Origin: a virus | Taxonomy: Duplodnaviria > Caudoviricetes | Direction: 5' to 3' (one strand) | IMG/VR virus record: IMGVR_UViG_642973577_000001 | Coordinates: 32,001 to 96,000 of that record | DNA: 64,000 nt | In this document: positions 466 to 62,993 of the stretch, piece by piece | Numbering within the stretch: the first letter of the stretch is position 1 | Layout: each line of letters opens with the position of its first letter | Notes under the pieces: generated by a model | Seen by the model: only the letters and a program-made list of their open reading frames with translations | Told to the model about the DNA's origin: nothing | Databases searched by the model: none | Made by a program: the position numbers and the translations under genes

Positions 466-547
466 GGAGGGTGAGTATCAGGTGATACAGCGAGATTGCT
501 AATCCCGTACGGCTCATACCCGTGAGGTTCAAGTCCTCCTCCCTCCG
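466..547 (+). tRNA. tRNA-Ser(GCT)
   Basis: Acceptor GGAGGGT/TCCCTCC (one mismatch), loop TT-GCT-AA, long variable arm, T-loop TTCAAGT. Confidence 0.9.
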
Positions 548-562
548 CGCAGCAGTACCGAT

Positions 563-645
563 GGAAGATACCGCTAAGTGGCTGGCAACCGGCGTCGAAT
601 ACCGGGGCGGGGTAACTCCTGGGGGTTCGATTCCTCTATCTTCCG
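563..645 (+). tRNA. tRNA-Ser(CGA)
   Basis: Acceptor GGAAGAT/ATCTTCC-G, loop GT-CGA-AT, variable arm, TTCGATT. Confidence 0.88.
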
Positions 646-661
646 CGCAACAACTGAACAC

Positions 662-736
662 GCCCCCGTGGGCAAATTGGCAAAGTCGCTGCACTCAGAC
701 TGCAGAGTTTTCCGGGTTCGAGTCCCGGCGGGGGTA
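662..736 (+). tRNA. tRNA-Leu(CAG), short variable loop
   Basis: GCCCCCG/CGGGGGT-A; CTGCA CT-CAG-AC TGCAG. Confidence 0.9.
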
Positions 737-798
737 CGTCGCACAATAGGTCCGTTATCGGACCCTTTGTGTTAATCGTCCCAGTTCAGGGGCGGTAT

Positions 799-871
799 GG
801 ACCGGTAGCCCAAAGGCAGAGGCAGCACGTTGAGGACGTGTCCAGTGCGGGTTCGACTCCCGCTCGGTCTA
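799..871 (+). tRNA. tRNA-Leu(GAG), short variable loop
   Basis: GGACCGG/TCGGTCT-A; GCACG TT-GAG-GA CGTGT. Confidence 0.88.
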
Positions 872-872
872 C

Positions 873-954
873 GCTCCAGTGGCGTAATGGCAGCCGCGCC
901 GCACTCAAAATGCGGTGTCCGTAGGACGTGCGAGTTCGAGTCTCGCCTGGAGTA
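873..954 (+). tRNA. tRNA-Leu(CAA)
   Basis: GCTCCAG/CTGGAGT-A; CCGCA CT-CAA-AA TGCGG; long variable arm. Confidence 0.93.
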
Positions 955-991
955 CGCAAACCCTGTAGTATGGCTATAGTGAGATCCATAG

Positions 992-1022
992 TTGACAGGG
1001 CCGCACGGCCTCGTGCTACAGT
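992..1022 (+). promoter_or_regulatory. SigA-like promoter for the pth2/tRNA-mimic operon
   Basis: TTGACA, 19 nt, extended -10 TGC-TACAGT. Confidence 0.6.
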
Positions 1023-1035
1023 CGGAGGCGTGTAG

Positions 1036-1392
1036 GTGACAAGAGAGTCCAACCCCGACAAGCTGTATATCGCTGTCCGGGCCGACATCGCCCCCGGTCT
1101 CCAGACCGCGCAGGCGTGCCACGCAGCCTTCCAGTTCTACCACGAGCACCCCGAGCTGACTCGTGAGTGGATTCGCACCTCGAACTTCATCGTCATCGTG
1201 AACGTGGAGAACGAGGAGCAACTCATCACCCTGGCCACCGACGCCCGTCTGGGCGAGGGCCTTGCCGTCTCGATGGTGAACGAGCCGGATCTGGGCGACG
1301 AGTACACCGCAATCGCGATCGAGGCCGGTGAGACGGCCTCGGCGCTGTGCGCCAGCTTCCCGCTGTGCCTGCGGAACGCATTCACCTACTGA
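1036..1392 (+). CDS. pth2: Peptidyl-tRNA hydrolase, Pth2 family
   Basis: KLYIAVRADIAPGLQTAQACHAA motif typical of Pth2; 118 aa; GGAGG RBS. Confidence 0.85.
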   Translation: MTRESNPDKLYIAVRADIAPGLQTAQACHAAFQFYHEHPELTREWIRTSNFIVIVNVENEEQLITLATDARLGEGLAVSMVNEPDLGDEYTAIAIEAGETASALCASFPLCLRNAFTY

Positions 1393-1396
1393 GCTT

Positions 1397-1430
1397 GTCG
1401 GGGGAGGGGTCAAAGCCTCCCCCGGCACCA
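1397..1430 (+). ncRNA. tRNA-like minihelix 1 ending in ACCA
   Basis: 11-bp stem GTCGGGGGAGG/CCTCCCCCGGC, loop GGTCAAAG, 3' ACCA. Confidence 0.7.
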
Positions 1431-1431
1431 G

Positions 1432-1485
1432 CGGGGCGACCGGTGTGAGGCCGGTCTGGAGGTTCGAGTCCTCCCGCCCCGACCA
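1432..1485 (+). ncRNA. D-armless tRNA-like RNA (54 nt) ending in ACCA
   Basis: CGGGGCG/CGCCCCG acceptor; ACCGG-TGTGAGG-CCGGT arm; GGAGG-TTCGAGT-CCTCC T arm; ACCA. Confidence 0.7.
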
Positions 1486-1486
1486 T

Positions 1487-1520
1487 GCCCCGGCTGGGGT
1501 CAAAGCCAGCCGGGGCACCA
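1487..1520 (+). ncRNA. tRNA-like minihelix 2 ending in ACCA
   Basis: Perfect 11-bp stem GCCCCGGCTGG/CCAGCCGGGGC, same loop GGTCAAAG, 3' ACCA. Confidence 0.7.
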
Positions 1521-1521
1521 A

Positions 1522-1592
1522 GCGAGATTGGTCTGGTGACCTAGCGAGCTTCTAAACCTCGCGATCGACCGGTTCGACTCCGGTATCTCGCG
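1522..1592 (+). tRNA. tRNA with CTA anticodon (amber suppressor / tRNA-Pyl-like)
   Basis: GCGAGAT/ATCTCGC-G73; tiny D arm GGTC-TGGT-GACC; GCGAGC TT-CTA-AA CCTCGC; ACCGG-TTCGACT-CCGGT. Confidence 0.75.
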
Positions 1593-1597
1593 CAACA

Positions 1598-1660: not shown

Positions 1661-4600
1661 ATGAGTGACTTCGGACTGTTCGAGGCGGATACAGACGCCC
1701 AGCAGGCACCGCAGCGGCAGCAGCGTCAGGCAGCCAACAAGCTGGCCAACGCCATCTACGACGTCCGGGACCAGTACGGGCCGTTCCTGATGGGCAGCAC
1801 CGGCAAGGACGAGTTCGAGGATCGCTGGCACCACGCCAAGACCGACATCCGCAAGACCGTCGAGGCCGCTGGCGCGTTCCCCAACACCGGAGTCATGCGC
1901 CGCATCCACAACGCGATGAAGCGCGAGTTCGTGGCCACTCTCGGCGACGACAACAGCGACGACCCGACCAAGAAGCCGAAGGACGACGGCGACAAGGCCC
2001 GGACGATCAACGACTCGCAGTACAAGAAGGTCCAGGACGGCGATCCGAGCGTCAAGGACGACGTGAAGACCAACACCGGAGACGGCTCTGACGCCGAAGG
2101 CCGTAATCCGTCGTCGACCACTGGCCCGCAGGGTGACCCCCGTGACTCCGGCCCGGAGCGCAAGAAGAGTAGCCGTCGCCACGCTGCGGGCGAGAACGGT
2201 GACGAGGGTCCTTTCGGGTCTGACCCCAGGAAGTGCAGCCATGAGAACAGTGAACCGCTGGGCAATGGCCAGAAGGAGTGCTACGACTGCGGCGAGATCG
2301 TCAAGACCGGACGCCGCTACGCCGAGAACTTCGACGGCGACCTGGTGCCCAAGGGCAACTTCGACGCCTACCTGGACTCGGTGGACAACGGCGGACCGGA
2401 GAAGGTCCAGCGCAACTTCACCGACGGCGACGACAGCGGCGAGGACAAGCCGTCCAGCCGCGAGGCCCGTCGGCTGGCCGTGGACCTGTACAAGGACTTC
2501 GCCGAGGCCAACGGCCTGCGCGAGGCCAAGCTGTCGACGCTGGACCACTACGCCGACACCGGCATCGACGACTCCACCTACTTCATGCTCGCGAACCTCA
2601 TCCGCCAGGCGGACGAGAACTGCGACTGCGACGATGACGAGGACACCGACGGTCCTGGCGGCTCGGACAGCGACAGCGACGGTCCGCCGAAGGGTGCCGC
2701 CGAGAAGGGTGGCGAGTCGTCGTCGGATGACGACAGCGAGGACGACGGTGGCTCGGACAGCGATTCGGGTGACGACGACGCACCAGAGTCCGACGGAGGT
2801 TCGGATGATGGTGGCGAGAACCCGTTCGCGGAGAGCGACTCGGATTCGGATGCGCCTTCGGAGGACGCCGGTCCTTCGGCGGACGATGCGGGACCGGCTG
2901 GTGATCCTCAGGCTCCGCCTGGCCCACCTGACCTCGGTCCTGAGGACGGCGGCGATCCTGCTGGGCTGGAAGCCCCGCCCGGACCGCCGTCGCTGGACGA
3001 CGCGCCGCCGCTCGCGCAGGACGACTTCTCGGGTGTCGACGAGCTGACCCCCGACGCCGCTGGCCAGCTGCCACCGGACACCGAGCTGGTGCAGGTCGAG
3101 CAGATCGAGGACGCCCTGGGCCTGCCTCCGGGCACCCTGGAGCAGCTGCTGGCCGACAGCATCGCGCACGGCGGTCCGCCACAGCCACACGGCGCAGGAC
3201 CCGTCGCGAGCCGCAGGTACGTGGCTTTCGGAGAAGGGGCTGACCCGGCTGCCGGGGGTCAGGCTGTAGCTCCGGCTGCCCCCGCACCGGCTGCCGCGCC
3301 CGCTCCGGCCATGCCAGGCCCGGACGACGGCGCTCTCCTGGACCAGGCCAGCCAGGCTGTGACCAACCTGGTGGACCAGAAGACCCAGGAGTACCAGACC
3401 ATCATCGACCCGCTGCAGCAGGCGCTGCAGGCGATTCAGTTCGCCCAGCAGGTCGAGCAGGCAGCCAACCCGCTGGACGTCACCCCGCCTGAGGGCACGG
3501 TCGACGTCAACCCGCAGTCTGCGGTCGACCCGGCTGCCGAGGCCCAGGCCGCGAGCATCCAGGCACCGGCACCACAGACGTCGGCTGGTCCGCCGCCTCC
3601 GGGACCGGGAGGAATGCCCGCGCCTGCTCCGGCACCAGCCGGTGGTGACAGCGGTGGCTCCAGCGAGTCCGACAGCGGCGAGAAGAAGGAGTCGTCGCGT
3701 CAGCTCGATCTGCGCCGCCACGCCTTCAAGCTGGCCCAGTACTGGGGTCTGAGCGAGCAGGGCTACCAGACGGTCCTGGCCGCGATGAGCCGCAAGCACT
3801 ACCAGCACGTGGCCGAGGCCATCCAGACGCTGCCGCCGGAGCACCGGATGGGCATCGCCGCCAGCCTGGCCGACATGTTCAGCACCGATAACGTGCGGTT
3901 CAACACCGGCCAGTTCATGGCCAGCGCGGGCGTGCCGATGGGCGCGGATGCCATCCACATGGCCAAGAGCACTGACGACTTCCATACCTACAACGATCGC
4001 GGTGGAGAACCCGGCGACTACGAGCGCAACAACCGGGGCTATAGCGACGTCGGTAACGGTATGGTCCAGGACTGGGAGACCGGCGAGGTCTACCCGCATC
4101 CGGGCAAGAAGGCCAGGGTGGCTGCCAACCCCGCCGACCGTGCCGGTGACCGCTGGCGCGACGGCAAGGACCGGGCCTCGGCGGACGCCGAGGAGTACGA
4201 CACCGACCCAGACAACTGGGAGGAGCGCGAGGCCGCACGCCTCGGACTCCGGCAGGGGAGCCGCCGCCCTTTCGTCATTAGGTCGAGGACGACGGGAGGT
4301 GGACGCACGGCTGGAGAGACCTGGAAGCCGCCGGGTGGGGGTCAAGCTCTCGATGCGTTCGAGTTCCCCGGCCAGGGCGAGAAGGCCGAGTTCAGCGACA
4401 ACATGAAGATCAACGACCTGCCTGGCCAGAAGGCCAAGTCGGCGGGCGTGGTCGAGGACTTCCAGCGGTTCGACAAGCGTCGCGCCGAGCAGGGTCTCAA
4501 CGTCGGCGGTGAGGGCGAGGTCGACTCCTTCCTGCAGAACAAGAAGGTCGGCCCACGCGCCCAGGACAAGCTGCACGAGGAGATCGGTCTACAGCCGCAC

Positions 4601-5551
4601 CAGAAGGCCGCGAACTTCCAGCCCAAGGTCGCCGGGTGGGAGTTCGACGACCACCTCAACGGCTACGTGAGCCACATCCGCCAGGCGTTCCACTGCCCGT
4701 GCGGCCAGGCCCACAACCCGCCGTCGCACGGCATGTGCCGCTGCGGCAAGCTTTGGTACACCTACGCCATCGGCACCGGCCAGCACCTGGCCAACGGCAA
4801 CGAGGCGGAGATGTTCCTGGCCCGCGAGATCCCCGTGCGGGAGAACGTGATCATGGCCAACCGCCAGTTCCGGTCGGCGGAGGAGTACAACAACGCCAGC
4901 GGCAACGGCCCGTACCAGGACTACCCGGAGGACGTCGAGTTCTACGACGACGACGAGATCGACCAGTCGACGCCGCACGCGCCAGGTGAGACCGACATGG
5001 ACACCCGCCGGTCGGCTGCAACCAGTCCTCCTTTCACTGGTGATCACGGTGGGTCAGAAGCCAGTGAATATGGAGTCAGCCATCCTGCCCCTCGTGAGAA
5101 GTGCGGCGAGTGCGGCTTCTATCACTACCCCAAGGAGGGGCACGGTTCTCCCATGAATCGTCGTCGTTCGGCGATCGAGCACGAGGACCCGGATCACACC
5201 GACCCCGCGTTCGGTGGCTGGCCGTTCGAGGAGCGCAAGCCCAAGCGCAACGACGGCAAGCGCACGGGCGCGAGCTACGGCGAGGACGACCACAACGTCG
5301 TCGACCGCAACGGCGAGAAGTTCTGCAGCGCCTGTGACGCCATGCTCTGGGACCCGAACGTCCACCACTGCCCTGCCAAGCAGGCTTCGCGGTCGTTCTT
5401 CGCAGACTGGACCAAGTTCACCGACGACGACAACGCCGGGTACGAGGAAGGCCCGAAGGAGCCACCGTCCACCACGCCAGGCAAGCAGCCGCCCAAGGAC
5501 TGGGCCAAGCGCGACGACAAGGGCAACTGGGTCAAGCCCCAGTTCAAGTAG
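1661..5551 (+). CDS. Large acidic/Pro-rich head-region protein with Zn-ribbon modules (1296 aa)
   Basis: Long ORF with phage-like GC3 codon bias, several CxxC pairs, upstream of the portal. Confidence 0.8.
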   Translation: MSDFGLFEADTDAQQAPQRQQRQAANKLANAIYDVRDQYGPFLMGSTGKDEFEDRWHHAKTDIRKTVEAAGAFPNTGVMRRIHNAMKREFVATLGDDNSDDPTKKPKDDGDKARTINDSQYKKVQDGDPSVKDDVKTNTGDGSDAEGRNPSSTTGPQGDPRDSGPERKKSSRRHAAGENGDEGPFGSDPRKCSHENSEPLGNGQKECYDCGEIVKTGRRYAENFDGDLVPKGNFDAYLDSVDNGGPEKVQRNFTDGDDSGEDKPSSREARRLAVDLYKDFAEANGLREAKLSTLDHYADTGIDDSTYFMLANLIRQADENCDCDDDEDTDGPGGSDSDSDGPPKGAAEKGGESSSDDDSEDDGGSDSDSGDDDAPESDGGSDDGGENPFAESDSDSDAPSEDAGPSADDAGPAGDPQAPPGPPDLGPEDGGDPAGLEAPPGPPSLDDAPPLAQDDFSGVDELTPDAAGQLPPDTELVQVEQIEDALGLPPGTLEQLLADSIAHGGPPQPHGAGPVASRRYVAFGEGADPAAGGQAVAPAAPAPAAAPAPAMPGPDDGALLDQASQAVTNLVDQKTQEYQTIIDPLQQALQAIQFAQQVEQAANPLDVTPPEGTVDVNPQSAVDPAAEAQAASIQAPAPQTSAGPPPPGPGGMPAPAPAPAGGDSGGSSESDSGEKKESSRQLDLRRHAFKLAQYWGLSEQGYQTVLAAMSRKHYQHVAEAIQTLPPEHRMGIAASLADMFSTDNVRFNTGQFMASAGVPMGADAIHMAKSTDDFHTYNDRGGEPGDYERNNRGYSDVGNGMVQDWETGEVYPHPGKKARVAANPADRAGDRWRDGKDRASADAEEYDTDPDNWEEREAARLGLRQGSRRPFVIRSRTTGGGRTAGETWKPPGGGQALDAFEFPGQGEKAEFSDNMKINDLPGQKAKSAGVVEDFQRFDKRRAEQGLNVGGEGEVDSFLQNKKVGPRAQDKLHEEIGLQPHQKAANFQPKVAGWEFDDHLNGYVSHIRQAFHCPCGQAHNPPSHGMCRCGKLWYTYAIGTGQHLANGNEAEMFLAREIPVRENVIMANRQFRSAEEYNNASGNGPYQDYPEDVEFYDDDEIDQSTPHAPGETDMDTRRSAATSPPFTGDHGGSEASEYGVSHPAPREKCGECGFYHYPKEGHGSPMNRRRSAIEHEDPDHTDPAFGGWPFEERKPKRNDGKRTGASYGEDDHNVVDRNGEKFCSACDAMLWDPNVHHCPAKQASRSFFADWTKFTDDDNAGYEEGPKEPPSTTPGKQPPKDWAKRDDKGNWVKPQFK

Positions 5552-31997: not shown

Positions 31998-32036
31998 GGG
32001 CTACCCGTCCTCTCCTACTAGTGAAGGAGACCAGGA

Positions 32037-59625: not shown

Positions 59626-59655
59626 TTGCACGTCTGACACGGGGTCTGCTACGGT
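59626..59655 (+). promoter_or_regulatory. SigA-like promoter for the tRNA cluster
   Basis: TTGCAC-18 nt-extended TGC-TACGGT. Confidence 0.6.
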
Positions 59656-59932: not shown

Positions 59933-60000
59933 GCAGGTGTGAAGCGGCTTCCCGAAGGATTCCAACCCCTGAGGCGTGGGTTCAACTCCTACCACCTGTG
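59933..60000 (+). tRNA. tRNA-Trp(CCA), minimal D-loop
   Basis: GCAGGTG/CACCTGT-G; GAAG-CGG-CTTC; loop TT-CCA-AC. Confidence 0.75.
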
Positions 60001-60032
60001 CGTAAAGCGTCCAAACCACCTACCATGGTTAG

Positions 60033-60380
60033 ATGGCTTACAAGGACCCGTCAGACCCACGTCTGCTTGAGAAGCGTAGAGCGCATTACTACGCCAACAA
60101 GCAACCGTATCTAGATCGGGCAAAGGCTCAAAGGACAGCGATGTCCGTATGGGCCAGACAACTAAAGAGCGGACCCTGTACTGATTGTGGAGGCACTTTC
60201 CACCATTTTCAGATGGATTGGGATCACATTGGTGACGACAAAGAGTTCGACGTCGGCAAAGCGGTCAGGATAGGGTACGGCAAGAAGCGAATCTTGGCCG
60301 AGATCGCGAAGTGCGAGTTGGTTTGCGCCAACTGCCATCGCCTTCGGACCTGGAGGAGACTTCACCCTGAGGATGAGTAG
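60033..60380 (+). CDS. HNH endonuclease
   Basis: CTDCG..DWDH..KCELVCANCHRLRT; -10 TACCAT 6 nt before the ATG; AT-richer than flanks. Confidence 0.9.
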   Translation: MAYKDPSDPRLLEKRRAHYYANKQPYLDRAKAQRTAMSVWARQLKSGPCTDCGGTFHHFQMDWDHIGDDKEFDVGKAVRIGYGKKRILAEIAKCELVCANCHRLRTWRRLHPEDE

Positions 60381-62883: not shown

Positions 62884-62993
62884 AAGCACGGGCCGATCGG
62901 TCGTCGGTTATCGTTTAACGGAAAAACAATTCACTCATAATGAATCACTCCGGGTTCGAGTCCCGGTTCCGGCTCCATTAAATGCCCGTGTTT
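62884..62993 (+). ncRNA. Y-RNA-like element 3 (D arm, CAT anticodon arm, T arm; scaffold replaces the acceptor)
   Basis: GGGCCGA..GTCGGTTATC; GTTT/AAAC; ATTCA CT-CAT-AA TGAAT; CCGGG-TTCGAGT-CCCGG; CCGGC; closing AAGCACGGGC/GCCCGTGTTT. Confidence 0.75.

Follow-up and report, generated by a model that had tools for sequence, protein, structure and literature searches.

CCA-ending minihelices resembling the tRNA acceptor arm, encoded in tandem beside a peptidyl-tRNA hydrolase gene in phages

Organization of the locus

We analyzed a window of 64,000 nucleotides, corresponding to positions 32001–96000 of a complete virus record of 164,602 bp. Among named phages, this virus is closest to two Myrnavirus mycobacteriophages, Phabba (89% over the query) and ScoobyDoobyDoo (71%). 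Near the start of this window, three short elements, each ending in ACCA, are arranged in tandem with gaps of 1 nt and are flanked by the gene of a PTH2-family peptidyl-tRNA hydrolase (pth) and by a tRNA(CUA) gene. The features of the locus are the following.

466–955, plus strand: Ser/Leu tRNA array
992–1022, plus strand: weak promoter-like motif (TTGACA, 19 nt, TACAGT) that includes TGCTACAGT, 5' of the PTH2 gene
1036–1392, plus strand: ORF of 118 aa, PTH2-family peptidyl-tRNA hydrolase gene (Pfam PF01981)
1397–1430, plus strand: minihelix 1, a 34-nt hairpin with an 11-bp stem, the loop GGTCAAAG and ACCA; U at –1
1432–1485, plus strand: element 2, a 54-nt tRNA-like RNA without a D arm, ending in ACCA
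1487–1520, plus strand: minihelix 2, a 34-nt hairpin with an 11-bp stem, the loop GGTCAAAG and ACCA; U at –1
1522–1593, plus strand: tRNA(CUA), labelled 'Pyl' by ARAGORN, with no encoded CCA
1661–5551, plus strand: ORF of 1296 aa, directly 3' of the RNA cassette

The stop codon of the PTH2 gene lies 4 nt 5' of minihelix 1, and tRNA(CUA) begins 1 nt after minihelix 2. The PTH2 product matches PF01981 with an E-value of 9.7e-9 and a score of 35.9 bits (Pfam cut-off 23), and its relatives are annotated 'peptidyl tRNA hydrolase'. The first-pass annotation had described two 34-nt hairpins with an 11-bp stem, an identical loop and a 3' ACCA, spaced like tRNAs. The sequence confirms both hairpins, and the tRNA-like packing holds as well, with spacers of 0–2 nt; the two-element picture was nonetheless incomplete, as element 2, the PTH2 gene and tRNA(CUA) had been missed. 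The minimum-energy fold of positions 1393–1600 (208 nt) consists of four independent domains with an energy of –117.7 kcal/mol (z = –6.37), a stability that was reached by none of 200 shuffled sequences.

The spaced promoter pattern at 992–1022 is not statistically significant, and a generic sigma-70 scan detected no promoter at the locus, this segment included. The motif TGCTACRGT is present in three copies in the window, at 382–390, 1014–1022 and 59647–59655, all on the plus strand and each just 5' of a tRNA/pth unit, where 0.46 copies are expected; three or more were found in 2 of 100 shuffles. This motif may belong to a phage promoter that serves the RNA gene clusters. At the other end of the locus, the 1296-aa ORF carries a long acidic low-complexity stretch and is preceded by a conserved hairpin ahead of its start codon; it has no Pfam match and strongly matches phrog_2922, a family with no assigned function. 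Elsewhere in the window, a degenerate tRNA-like sequence (59935–60000) and a small ORF with an HNH-like Cys/His pattern (60027–60379) are positioned between tRNA-Pro and tRNA-Tyr, which suggests the insertion of a homing endonuclease into the tRNA array.

Minihelix 1 has G1 paired to C and a single U.G pair, at position 2, whereas minihelix 2 is Watson-Crick paired throughout. The stems differ at 5 of 11 positions (2, 4, 5, 8, and 9) and every pair is kept, four of the five differences being altered on both strands of the stem, in agreement with the covariation that had been noticed from the sequence. A strict scan covering the entire genome (164,602 bp) on both strands, requiring 11 bp with at most one G.U, a loop of 4–9 nt and then NCCA, returned exactly two matches, namely minihelices 1 and 2. 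The same scan on 100 dinucleotide shuffles gave a mean of 0.13 matches, with two or more in one shuffle only. Taken by itself, the loop octamer is not significantly enriched (2 matches where 1.25 are expected; 34 of 100 shuffles had at least 2), no copy of its reverse complement is present in the window, and looser hairpin-plus-NCCA criteria retrieved 19 matches in this GC-rich genome as compared to 10.5 in shuffles. Minihelices 1 and 2 score 52.7 and 49.1 bits, respectively, with model R1.

Both hairpins present the elements of the tRNA 'top half': an 11-bp helix, perhaps extended by a non-canonical 12th layer (G.G in the window), and then ACCA. The resemblance to an acceptor stem stacked on a T arm, claimed in the first-pass annotation, stands for the presented N73-CCA and is incomplete for the loop. 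A T loop has 7 nt of the form T-psi-C-R-A-N-N and is closed by G53-C61; in the minihelices, the closing G-C pair, T14 and A16 are invariant, but the loop has 8 nt and carries a G at the place of T54, and that of ScoobyDoobyDoo has 5 nt. The CCA is encoded in all three elements, versus only 2 of the 36 tRNAs that ARAGORN detects in the genome, which also encodes its own CCA-adding enzyme. These two tRNAs are a tRNA-Arg just outside the window and an AT-rich tRNA(CAU) at 62903–62977. The tRNA(CAU) is odd in its own right: it ends in a DNA-encoded UCCA, and the first five pairs of its acceptor stem, including U2.G71, are those of minihelix 1 and are followed by two U.U mismatches.

Element 2 is composed of a 7-bp acceptor stem, a 5-bp hairpin with the loop TGTGAGG, a T arm (GGAGG/TTCGAGT/CCTCC) and ACCA. 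Its acceptor carries C1-G72, G3-C70 and A73; the combination of C1-G72 and A73 may resemble a proline acceptor. Canonical tRNAs are ruled out in this segment: ARAGORN made no call in 1397–1520, and the tRNA model RF00005 (cut-off 29 bits) gave no match there at E-values up to 10. More generally, no Rfam family reached its cut-off within 1385–1600. The weak matches were to tRNA-Sec over 1397–1483 (24.3 bits, cut-off 47) and, for element 2, to mascRNA (16.8 bits, cut-off 42.5) and tmRNA (9 bits, cut-off 47). A tmRNA domain is rejected on the grounds that G3.U70 is absent, that RF00023 stays at 9 bits versus 47 on element 2 and that it gives no match on the hairpins; no tmRNA scores above the cut-off in the whole genome.

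Conservation and exchange of the elements in related phages

PTH2 relatives were drawn from viral (13 loci) and metagenomic (6 loci) contigs, some of which are duplicates; with two peptide patterns, none was found in bacterial genomes. A tRNA(CUA) on the same strand 3' of the PTH2 gene was detected by ARAGORN in 13 of 18 sources; it is on the opposite strand in one and absent from four. The anticodon loop of this tRNA has 9 nt, CUUCUAAAC, in the window and in loci L001, L003, L012, L013 and L019, and a normal 7-nt form, CUCUAAN, in ScoobyDoobyDoo, L151, L152 and L020; the records annotate it variously as Pyl, Arg(tct) or 'tRNA-like'. Conservation runs deeper for the association of PTH2 with tRNA(CUA) than for the minihelices.

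The exact 34-nt format (11 bp, 8-nt loop, NCCA) is found in two copies in the window and in two copies in Phabba, identical in both. It recurs in three copies in L012 (81% PTH2 identity), in one copy each in L013 (59%), L151 (63%) and L152 (65%), and in two copies in L019 (46%). The version of ScoobyDoobyDoo has 35 nt, with a 13-bp stem and a different, 5-nt loop. The most distant of these loci, L019, belongs to a lower-GC metagenomic phage that retains the gene order of the window without remaining nucleotide similarity: PTH2, a minihelix, a 53-nt D-armless tRNA-like RNA, a second minihelix and tRNA(CUA), with 1-nt spacers. In the window, Phabba, ScoobyDoobyDoo, L012 and L152, the first element begins 4–6 nt past the pth stop codon.

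Ten minihelices from six lineages were aligned (two from the window, three from L012, one from L013, two from L019 and one each from L151 and L152). All 110 stem cells are paired, a value that is partly so by construction because 7 of the 10 rows came via a filter requiring pairing, while one came via a covariance model and two by eye. When the partners were slid by 1–3 columns, pairing fell to 43–56% of the cells. Compensatory changes on both sides affect 8 of the 11 pairs; pair 3, for example, is C-G, U-A or G-C. The pairs G1-C30, G10-C21 and G11-C20, the loop bases T14 and A16 and the terminal CCA are invariant in all ten, the discriminator A73 is present in nine and the U2.G wobble in seven. 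L151 and L152 have exactly the loop GGTCAAAG, and L012 and L019 retain its core, GTCAAA. Minihelix 1 and its L152 counterpart differ solely at pairs 4 and 5, on both sides. The format, the position, the invariant unpaired bases and the compensatory differences between orthologues are independent of the pairing filter. The first-pass annotation had made the conservation of loop and ACCA in related phages a touchstone; the CCA (10/10) and A73 (9/10) are indeed retained and the loop recurs, but that of ScoobyDoobyDoo differs.

The pattern GGNGTCAAANCC-N8-CACCA gave at least 120 matches in viral contigs. Only four of the matches listed are fully paired, all of them in already known arrays. A further candidate, L147, with 10 of 11 pairs, was rejected as it is intergenic, with a T-run after it and no tRNA in the vicinity. 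In bacterial genomes, where GGGGTCAAAGCC-N8-CACCA also matched at least 120 times, none of the matches listed exceeds 9 of 11 pairs. Model R1, run over five whole viral records, detected no copies beyond the known ones, that of L019 included. A dispersed repeat is rejected, given that model R1 found no extra copies in these records and that the fully paired pattern matches listed are all in known arrays. In a Streptomyces genome (G005, contig 7), the locus L283 holds at 202–275 a 73-nt class-I tRNA(CAA) scoring 59.8 bits with RF00005, with the acceptor 7-mer and A73 of minihelix 2 and an anticodon loop that contains UCAAA, like the minihelix loop. In leucine tRNAs, a long variable arm is normal.

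The architecture of element 2 is also observed in L019, L016, Bxz1 and L018, and its acceptor stem covaries in ScoobyDoobyDoo. The internal hairpin loops of this family are not conserved: the loop has 7 nt without U33 in the window and 4 nt in L016. The number and order of the elements differ among lineages. Phages of the Bxz1 type (cluster C1) carry three ACCA-ending tRNA-like elements of 76, 65 or 70, and 58 nt and no 34-mer, and L018 has three elements of 63, 77 and 52 nt at the array site. In L012 (1876–1982) and L013 (1957–2063), tracts of about 107 nt separate a CCA-ending element from the following minihelix; each contains a long tRNA-like element in which a T arm and an acceptor stem are present but CCA is not, and which ARAGORN does not call.

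Comparison with Phabba reveals three elements that are identical at 122 of 122 nt, next to a pth gene, a tRNA(CUA) and a following ORF with identities of 84.6, 64.9, and 83.4%, respectively. In an environmental contig that is about 90% identical, pth has many substitutions, and the changes listed for 1393–1520 are limited to a 1-nt deletion in a spacer and one change in element 2. In cluster C1, 160 of 202 records have an array identity of 80–90%, as compared to 168 of 205 at 90–95% for pth; the array is the more variable of the two because its middle element exists in two forms. As judged from these alignments, the pattern is one of cassettes swapped between phages rather than of uniform conservation. 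Exchange is also visible inside the elements. One acceptor 7-mer with its A73 is reused in a 34-nt hairpin in L019 and in a 58-nt element in Bxz1, that of minihelix 2 is carried by a 65-nt body in Bxz1-type phages, and that of the 34-nt L152 minihelix by a 65-nt body in L013. The same acceptor 7-mer and A73 are therefore found on different bodies, which indicates that the CCA-presenting helix end is kept and that the body is exchangeable. Each phage holds a panel of different acceptor stems.

Possible biogenesis and function

Taken together, the sequence comparisons make it very probable that the minihelices are real, selected RNAs that mimic an acceptor arm and present a CCA end. In the explanation that we consider best overall, with a probability of roughly 0.4, they would be RNase P-processed mimics of the acceptor/T arm acting as decoys. 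The two hairpins and element 2 would be genes for non-decoding small RNAs that copy the tRNA top half, that is, an acceptor stem stacked on a T-arm-like stem-loop, a discriminator and CCA. They would be co-transcribed with the PTH2 gene and tRNA(CUA) and separated by RNase P cleavage at each G+1.

RNase P cleaves acceptor/T-arm minihelices, relying on RCCA and on a U at –1. G+1 is present in all ten aligned minihelices and ACCA in nine; U is found at –1 in six (both from the window, L012_a, L019_m1, L019_m2 and L152) and C in the other four (L012_b, L012_c, L013 and L151). A helix of about 12 layers with these signatures (G+1, U at –1, 3' RCCA) would amount to a minimal RNase P substrate, and biogenesis by RNase P appears likely at the level of sequence. 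Since the spacers have 0–2 nt, each cut would leave the upstream element with its CCA and at most 2 further bases, and any bases left 3' of CCA would be trimmed by exonucleases. The reason for encoding the CCA in the DNA would be that reduced substrates of this kind depend on the contact between RCCA and RNase P; no CCA addition would then be needed.

The function as decoys is putative and is put forward more tentatively than the processing. The RNAs would stay uncharged because they have no anticodon and carry an unusual U2.G71 pair, which to our knowledge belongs to no known synthetase identity set. In this state, they would act as decoys or inhibitors, competing for a protein that recognizes uncharged acceptor ends. 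Candidate targets would be host abortive-infection toxins that modify or cleave the CCA end, namely toxSAS enzymes such as PhRel, nucleotidyltransferases of the MenT/AbiEii type or tail nucleases, or else a sensor of uncharged tRNA. The first-pass annotation had likewise proposed decoys, with MenT, toxSAS/CapRel or TacT enzymes as putative targets, next to aminoacylated mini-tRNAs. The minihelices would then belong to a PTH2-centred module protecting tRNA ends. We favour decoys because conservation falls on the parts recognized by proteins acting on the acceptor end, because an anticodon is absent and because the acceptors form a varied panel.

Published work lends plausibility to this reading. 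The toxSAS FaRel2, whose recognition involves acceptor pairs 1, 2, 4, and 5, efficiently modifies a synthetic minihelix, and a hairpin composed of an acceptor stem and CCA is cut by Cas12a3. A prophage-encoded PhRel:ATphRel pair (gp29:gp30) is also stated to defend against lytic phages. Several features count against the decoy explanation: an 11-bp stem and 8-nt loop where a true acceptor/T-arm helix has 12 bp and 7 nt, the different loop of ScoobyDoobyDoo, the Bxz1-type phages without a 34-mer and a cluster C1 array with lower conservation than pth. Against a multiple-turnover enzyme, moreover, a substrate decoy must be very abundant or bind very tightly. Neither an HD_4 small alarmone hydrolase nor RtcB, either of which would support a theme of tRNA-end repair, was found in the genome of this phage.

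An alternative that we regard as unlikely is that the minihelices are chargeable acceptors without an anticodon. A host synthetase recognizing the acceptor end alone would charge them and the adjacent PTH2 would handle the charged, peptidyl or N-blocked forms; the RNAs could serve as amino-acid donors or as A-site-independent acceptors that free stalled chains, like the tRNA-like domain of tmRNA. The tight and deep linkage to PTH2, with the first element 4–6 nt after the stop codon in five phages or loci, is in line with such a role, as are the conserved G1-C72, A73 and CCA and the presumably proline-like acceptor of element 2. The cluster C1 relatives have a tmRNA (Hudson et al. 2014, PMC4131195), which in this genome does not appear above the cut-off. 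Charging with alanine is, however, not to be expected from acceptors devoid of G3.U70, and the internal loops of the element 2 family are not conserved. The U2.G71 pair is in no identity set that we know of, and entry into the ribosomal A site is inefficient without an anticodon or an SmpB-like partner.

Equally unlikely is a role of the hairpins as punctuation for processing and stability, in which they would provide RNase P entry sites and stable ends between the pth mRNA and the array, aiding the maturation of the odd neighbouring tRNA-like RNAs and having no role of their own as free RNAs. The position of the first minihelix just past the pth stop codon (4–6 nt), the spacers of 0–2 nt, the variable number and order of elements between lineages, and the alternation of minihelices with long tRNA-like elements lacking CCA in L012 and L013 are all compatible with punctuation. 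It leaves unexplained, however, the invariant loop bases, the closing G-C pairs, U2.G and A73, as well as the persistence of the exact 34-nt format over lineages at 46–65% PTH2 identity and the 122/122 identity with Phabba beside a tRNA that is 65% identical. In addition, the large tRNA arrays of the phage contain no such hairpins, as seen with both the strict scan and model R1.

Two further alternatives appear very improbable, each to a similar degree. GC-rich hairpins directly after an ORF could be terminators or attenuators without a U-tract, and the weak tRNA-Sec match, like the Phabba annotation of an 86-nt 'tRNA-undetermined' (tRNA-OTHER) spanning elements 1 and 2, could point to one long unusual tRNA. 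Intrinsic terminators are rejected, in accordance with the first-pass annotation, which had excluded them for want of a U-tail: no terminator-like site was found at 1397–1520, each ACCA is followed by G, T or A and then by the next RNA gene on the same strand rather than by a T-run, and an invariant NCCA would be out of keeping with a terminator. The single long tRNA requires a long-range pairing that is missing in ScoobyDoobyDoo, the minihelix of L152 has a different neighbour, and the minimum-energy fold keeps the units separate. Neutrally drifting, decaying remnants of tRNA genes with internal deletions would account for the T-arm-like stem of minihelix 1 being equal to the T stem of element 2, for full-size tRNA-like bodies at orthologous positions in other lineages and for degenerate tRNA-like sequence elsewhere in the window (59935–60000), but hardly for perfect stems with compensatory changes at 8 of 11 pairs, for a length, loop and CCA conserved over six lineages or for 0 changes in 122 nt relative to Phabba while the neighbouring genes differ by 15–35%.

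Returning to decoys, a broader proposal can be formulated, which is speculative and rather doubtful as a whole: that these are the first natural gene-encoded acceptor-arm minihelices, that the panel would act as decoys or inhibitors against host immunity directed at the uncharged CCA end and that, with PTH2 and an unusual tRNA(CUA), it would form a conserved end-protecting cassette. Bodies that are freely swapped while acceptor ends are kept would fit an arms race in which toxins recognize acceptor stems. If the decoy reading is true, RNAs that mimic the tRNA 3' end would be a new class of counter-defence. The tRNA 3' end is the site of action of several recently described defence enzymes, which accept minihelix-like substrates.

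Comparison with known tRNA-like RNAs

In full-text literature drawn mostly from outside the subscription journals and limited to main texts, we found no description of CCA-ending minihelix genes in phages. None of the 12 records listed, out of 202 from cluster C1, annotates the array; together with the mis-annotation in Phabba, this indicates that RNA genes have probably been overlooked in more than 200 sequenced mycobacteriophages.

For some forty years, the acceptor/T-arm minihelix has been known as a construct of the laboratory and as a hypothetical forerunner of tRNA; a conserved natural gene would be a living example of it. Synthetic minihelices are laboratory substrates for RNase P, CCA-adding enzymes, some synthetases, EF-Tu and toxSAS. 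The phage minihelices have in common with them a continuous helix, a T-loop-like cap, N73-CCA and a length of about 35 nt. The synthetic forms are man-made truncations of tRNA with 12 bp and a 7-nt T loop, whereas those of phages are encoded by genes, with 11 bp, an 8-nt loop, a G at the place of T54 and a frequent U2.G71.

Among small non-decoding tRNA-shaped RNAs that are released by RNase P, mascRNA and the tRNA-like RNAs of gammaherpesvirus 68 are of eukaryotic or animal-virus origin, adopt a cloverleaf and receive their CCA post-transcriptionally. The link to mascRNA is one of analogy and not of membership, element 2 scoring 16.8 bits against the cut-off of 42.5. Element 2 further recalls the D-armless and armless tRNAs of animal mitochondria by its 7-bp acceptor stem, single internal hairpin, T arm and length of about 50 nt. 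The mitochondrial tRNAs decode, whereas the internal loops of the element 2 family are not conserved as anticodon loops.

Phage tRNAs with a counter-defence role, such as the tRNA-Tyr of T5 that is reported to counter retron Ec78 (PMC11555353; bioRxiv 10.1101/2023.03.15.532788), are likewise tRNA-related RNAs that phages encode and that neutralise immunity directed at tRNA. They are complete, decode and replace cleaved host tRNAs, whereas minihelices, having no anticodon arm, would be confined to competition or inhibition. The closest published description that we found is a remark on mycobacteriophage DS6A, whose tmRNA is little more than a tRNA-like domain and was proposed to titrate SmpB (Hudson et al. 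2014, PMC4131195). It is likewise a mycobacteriophage RNA cut down to an acceptor and T arm with CCA; the elements of the window differ from it in lacking the G3.U70 of alanine identity, and with the tmRNA model element 2 scores 9 bits versus 47 and the hairpins give no match. The phage minihelices look like an apparently unreported kind of small viral RNA within the virus-encoded tRNA mimics.
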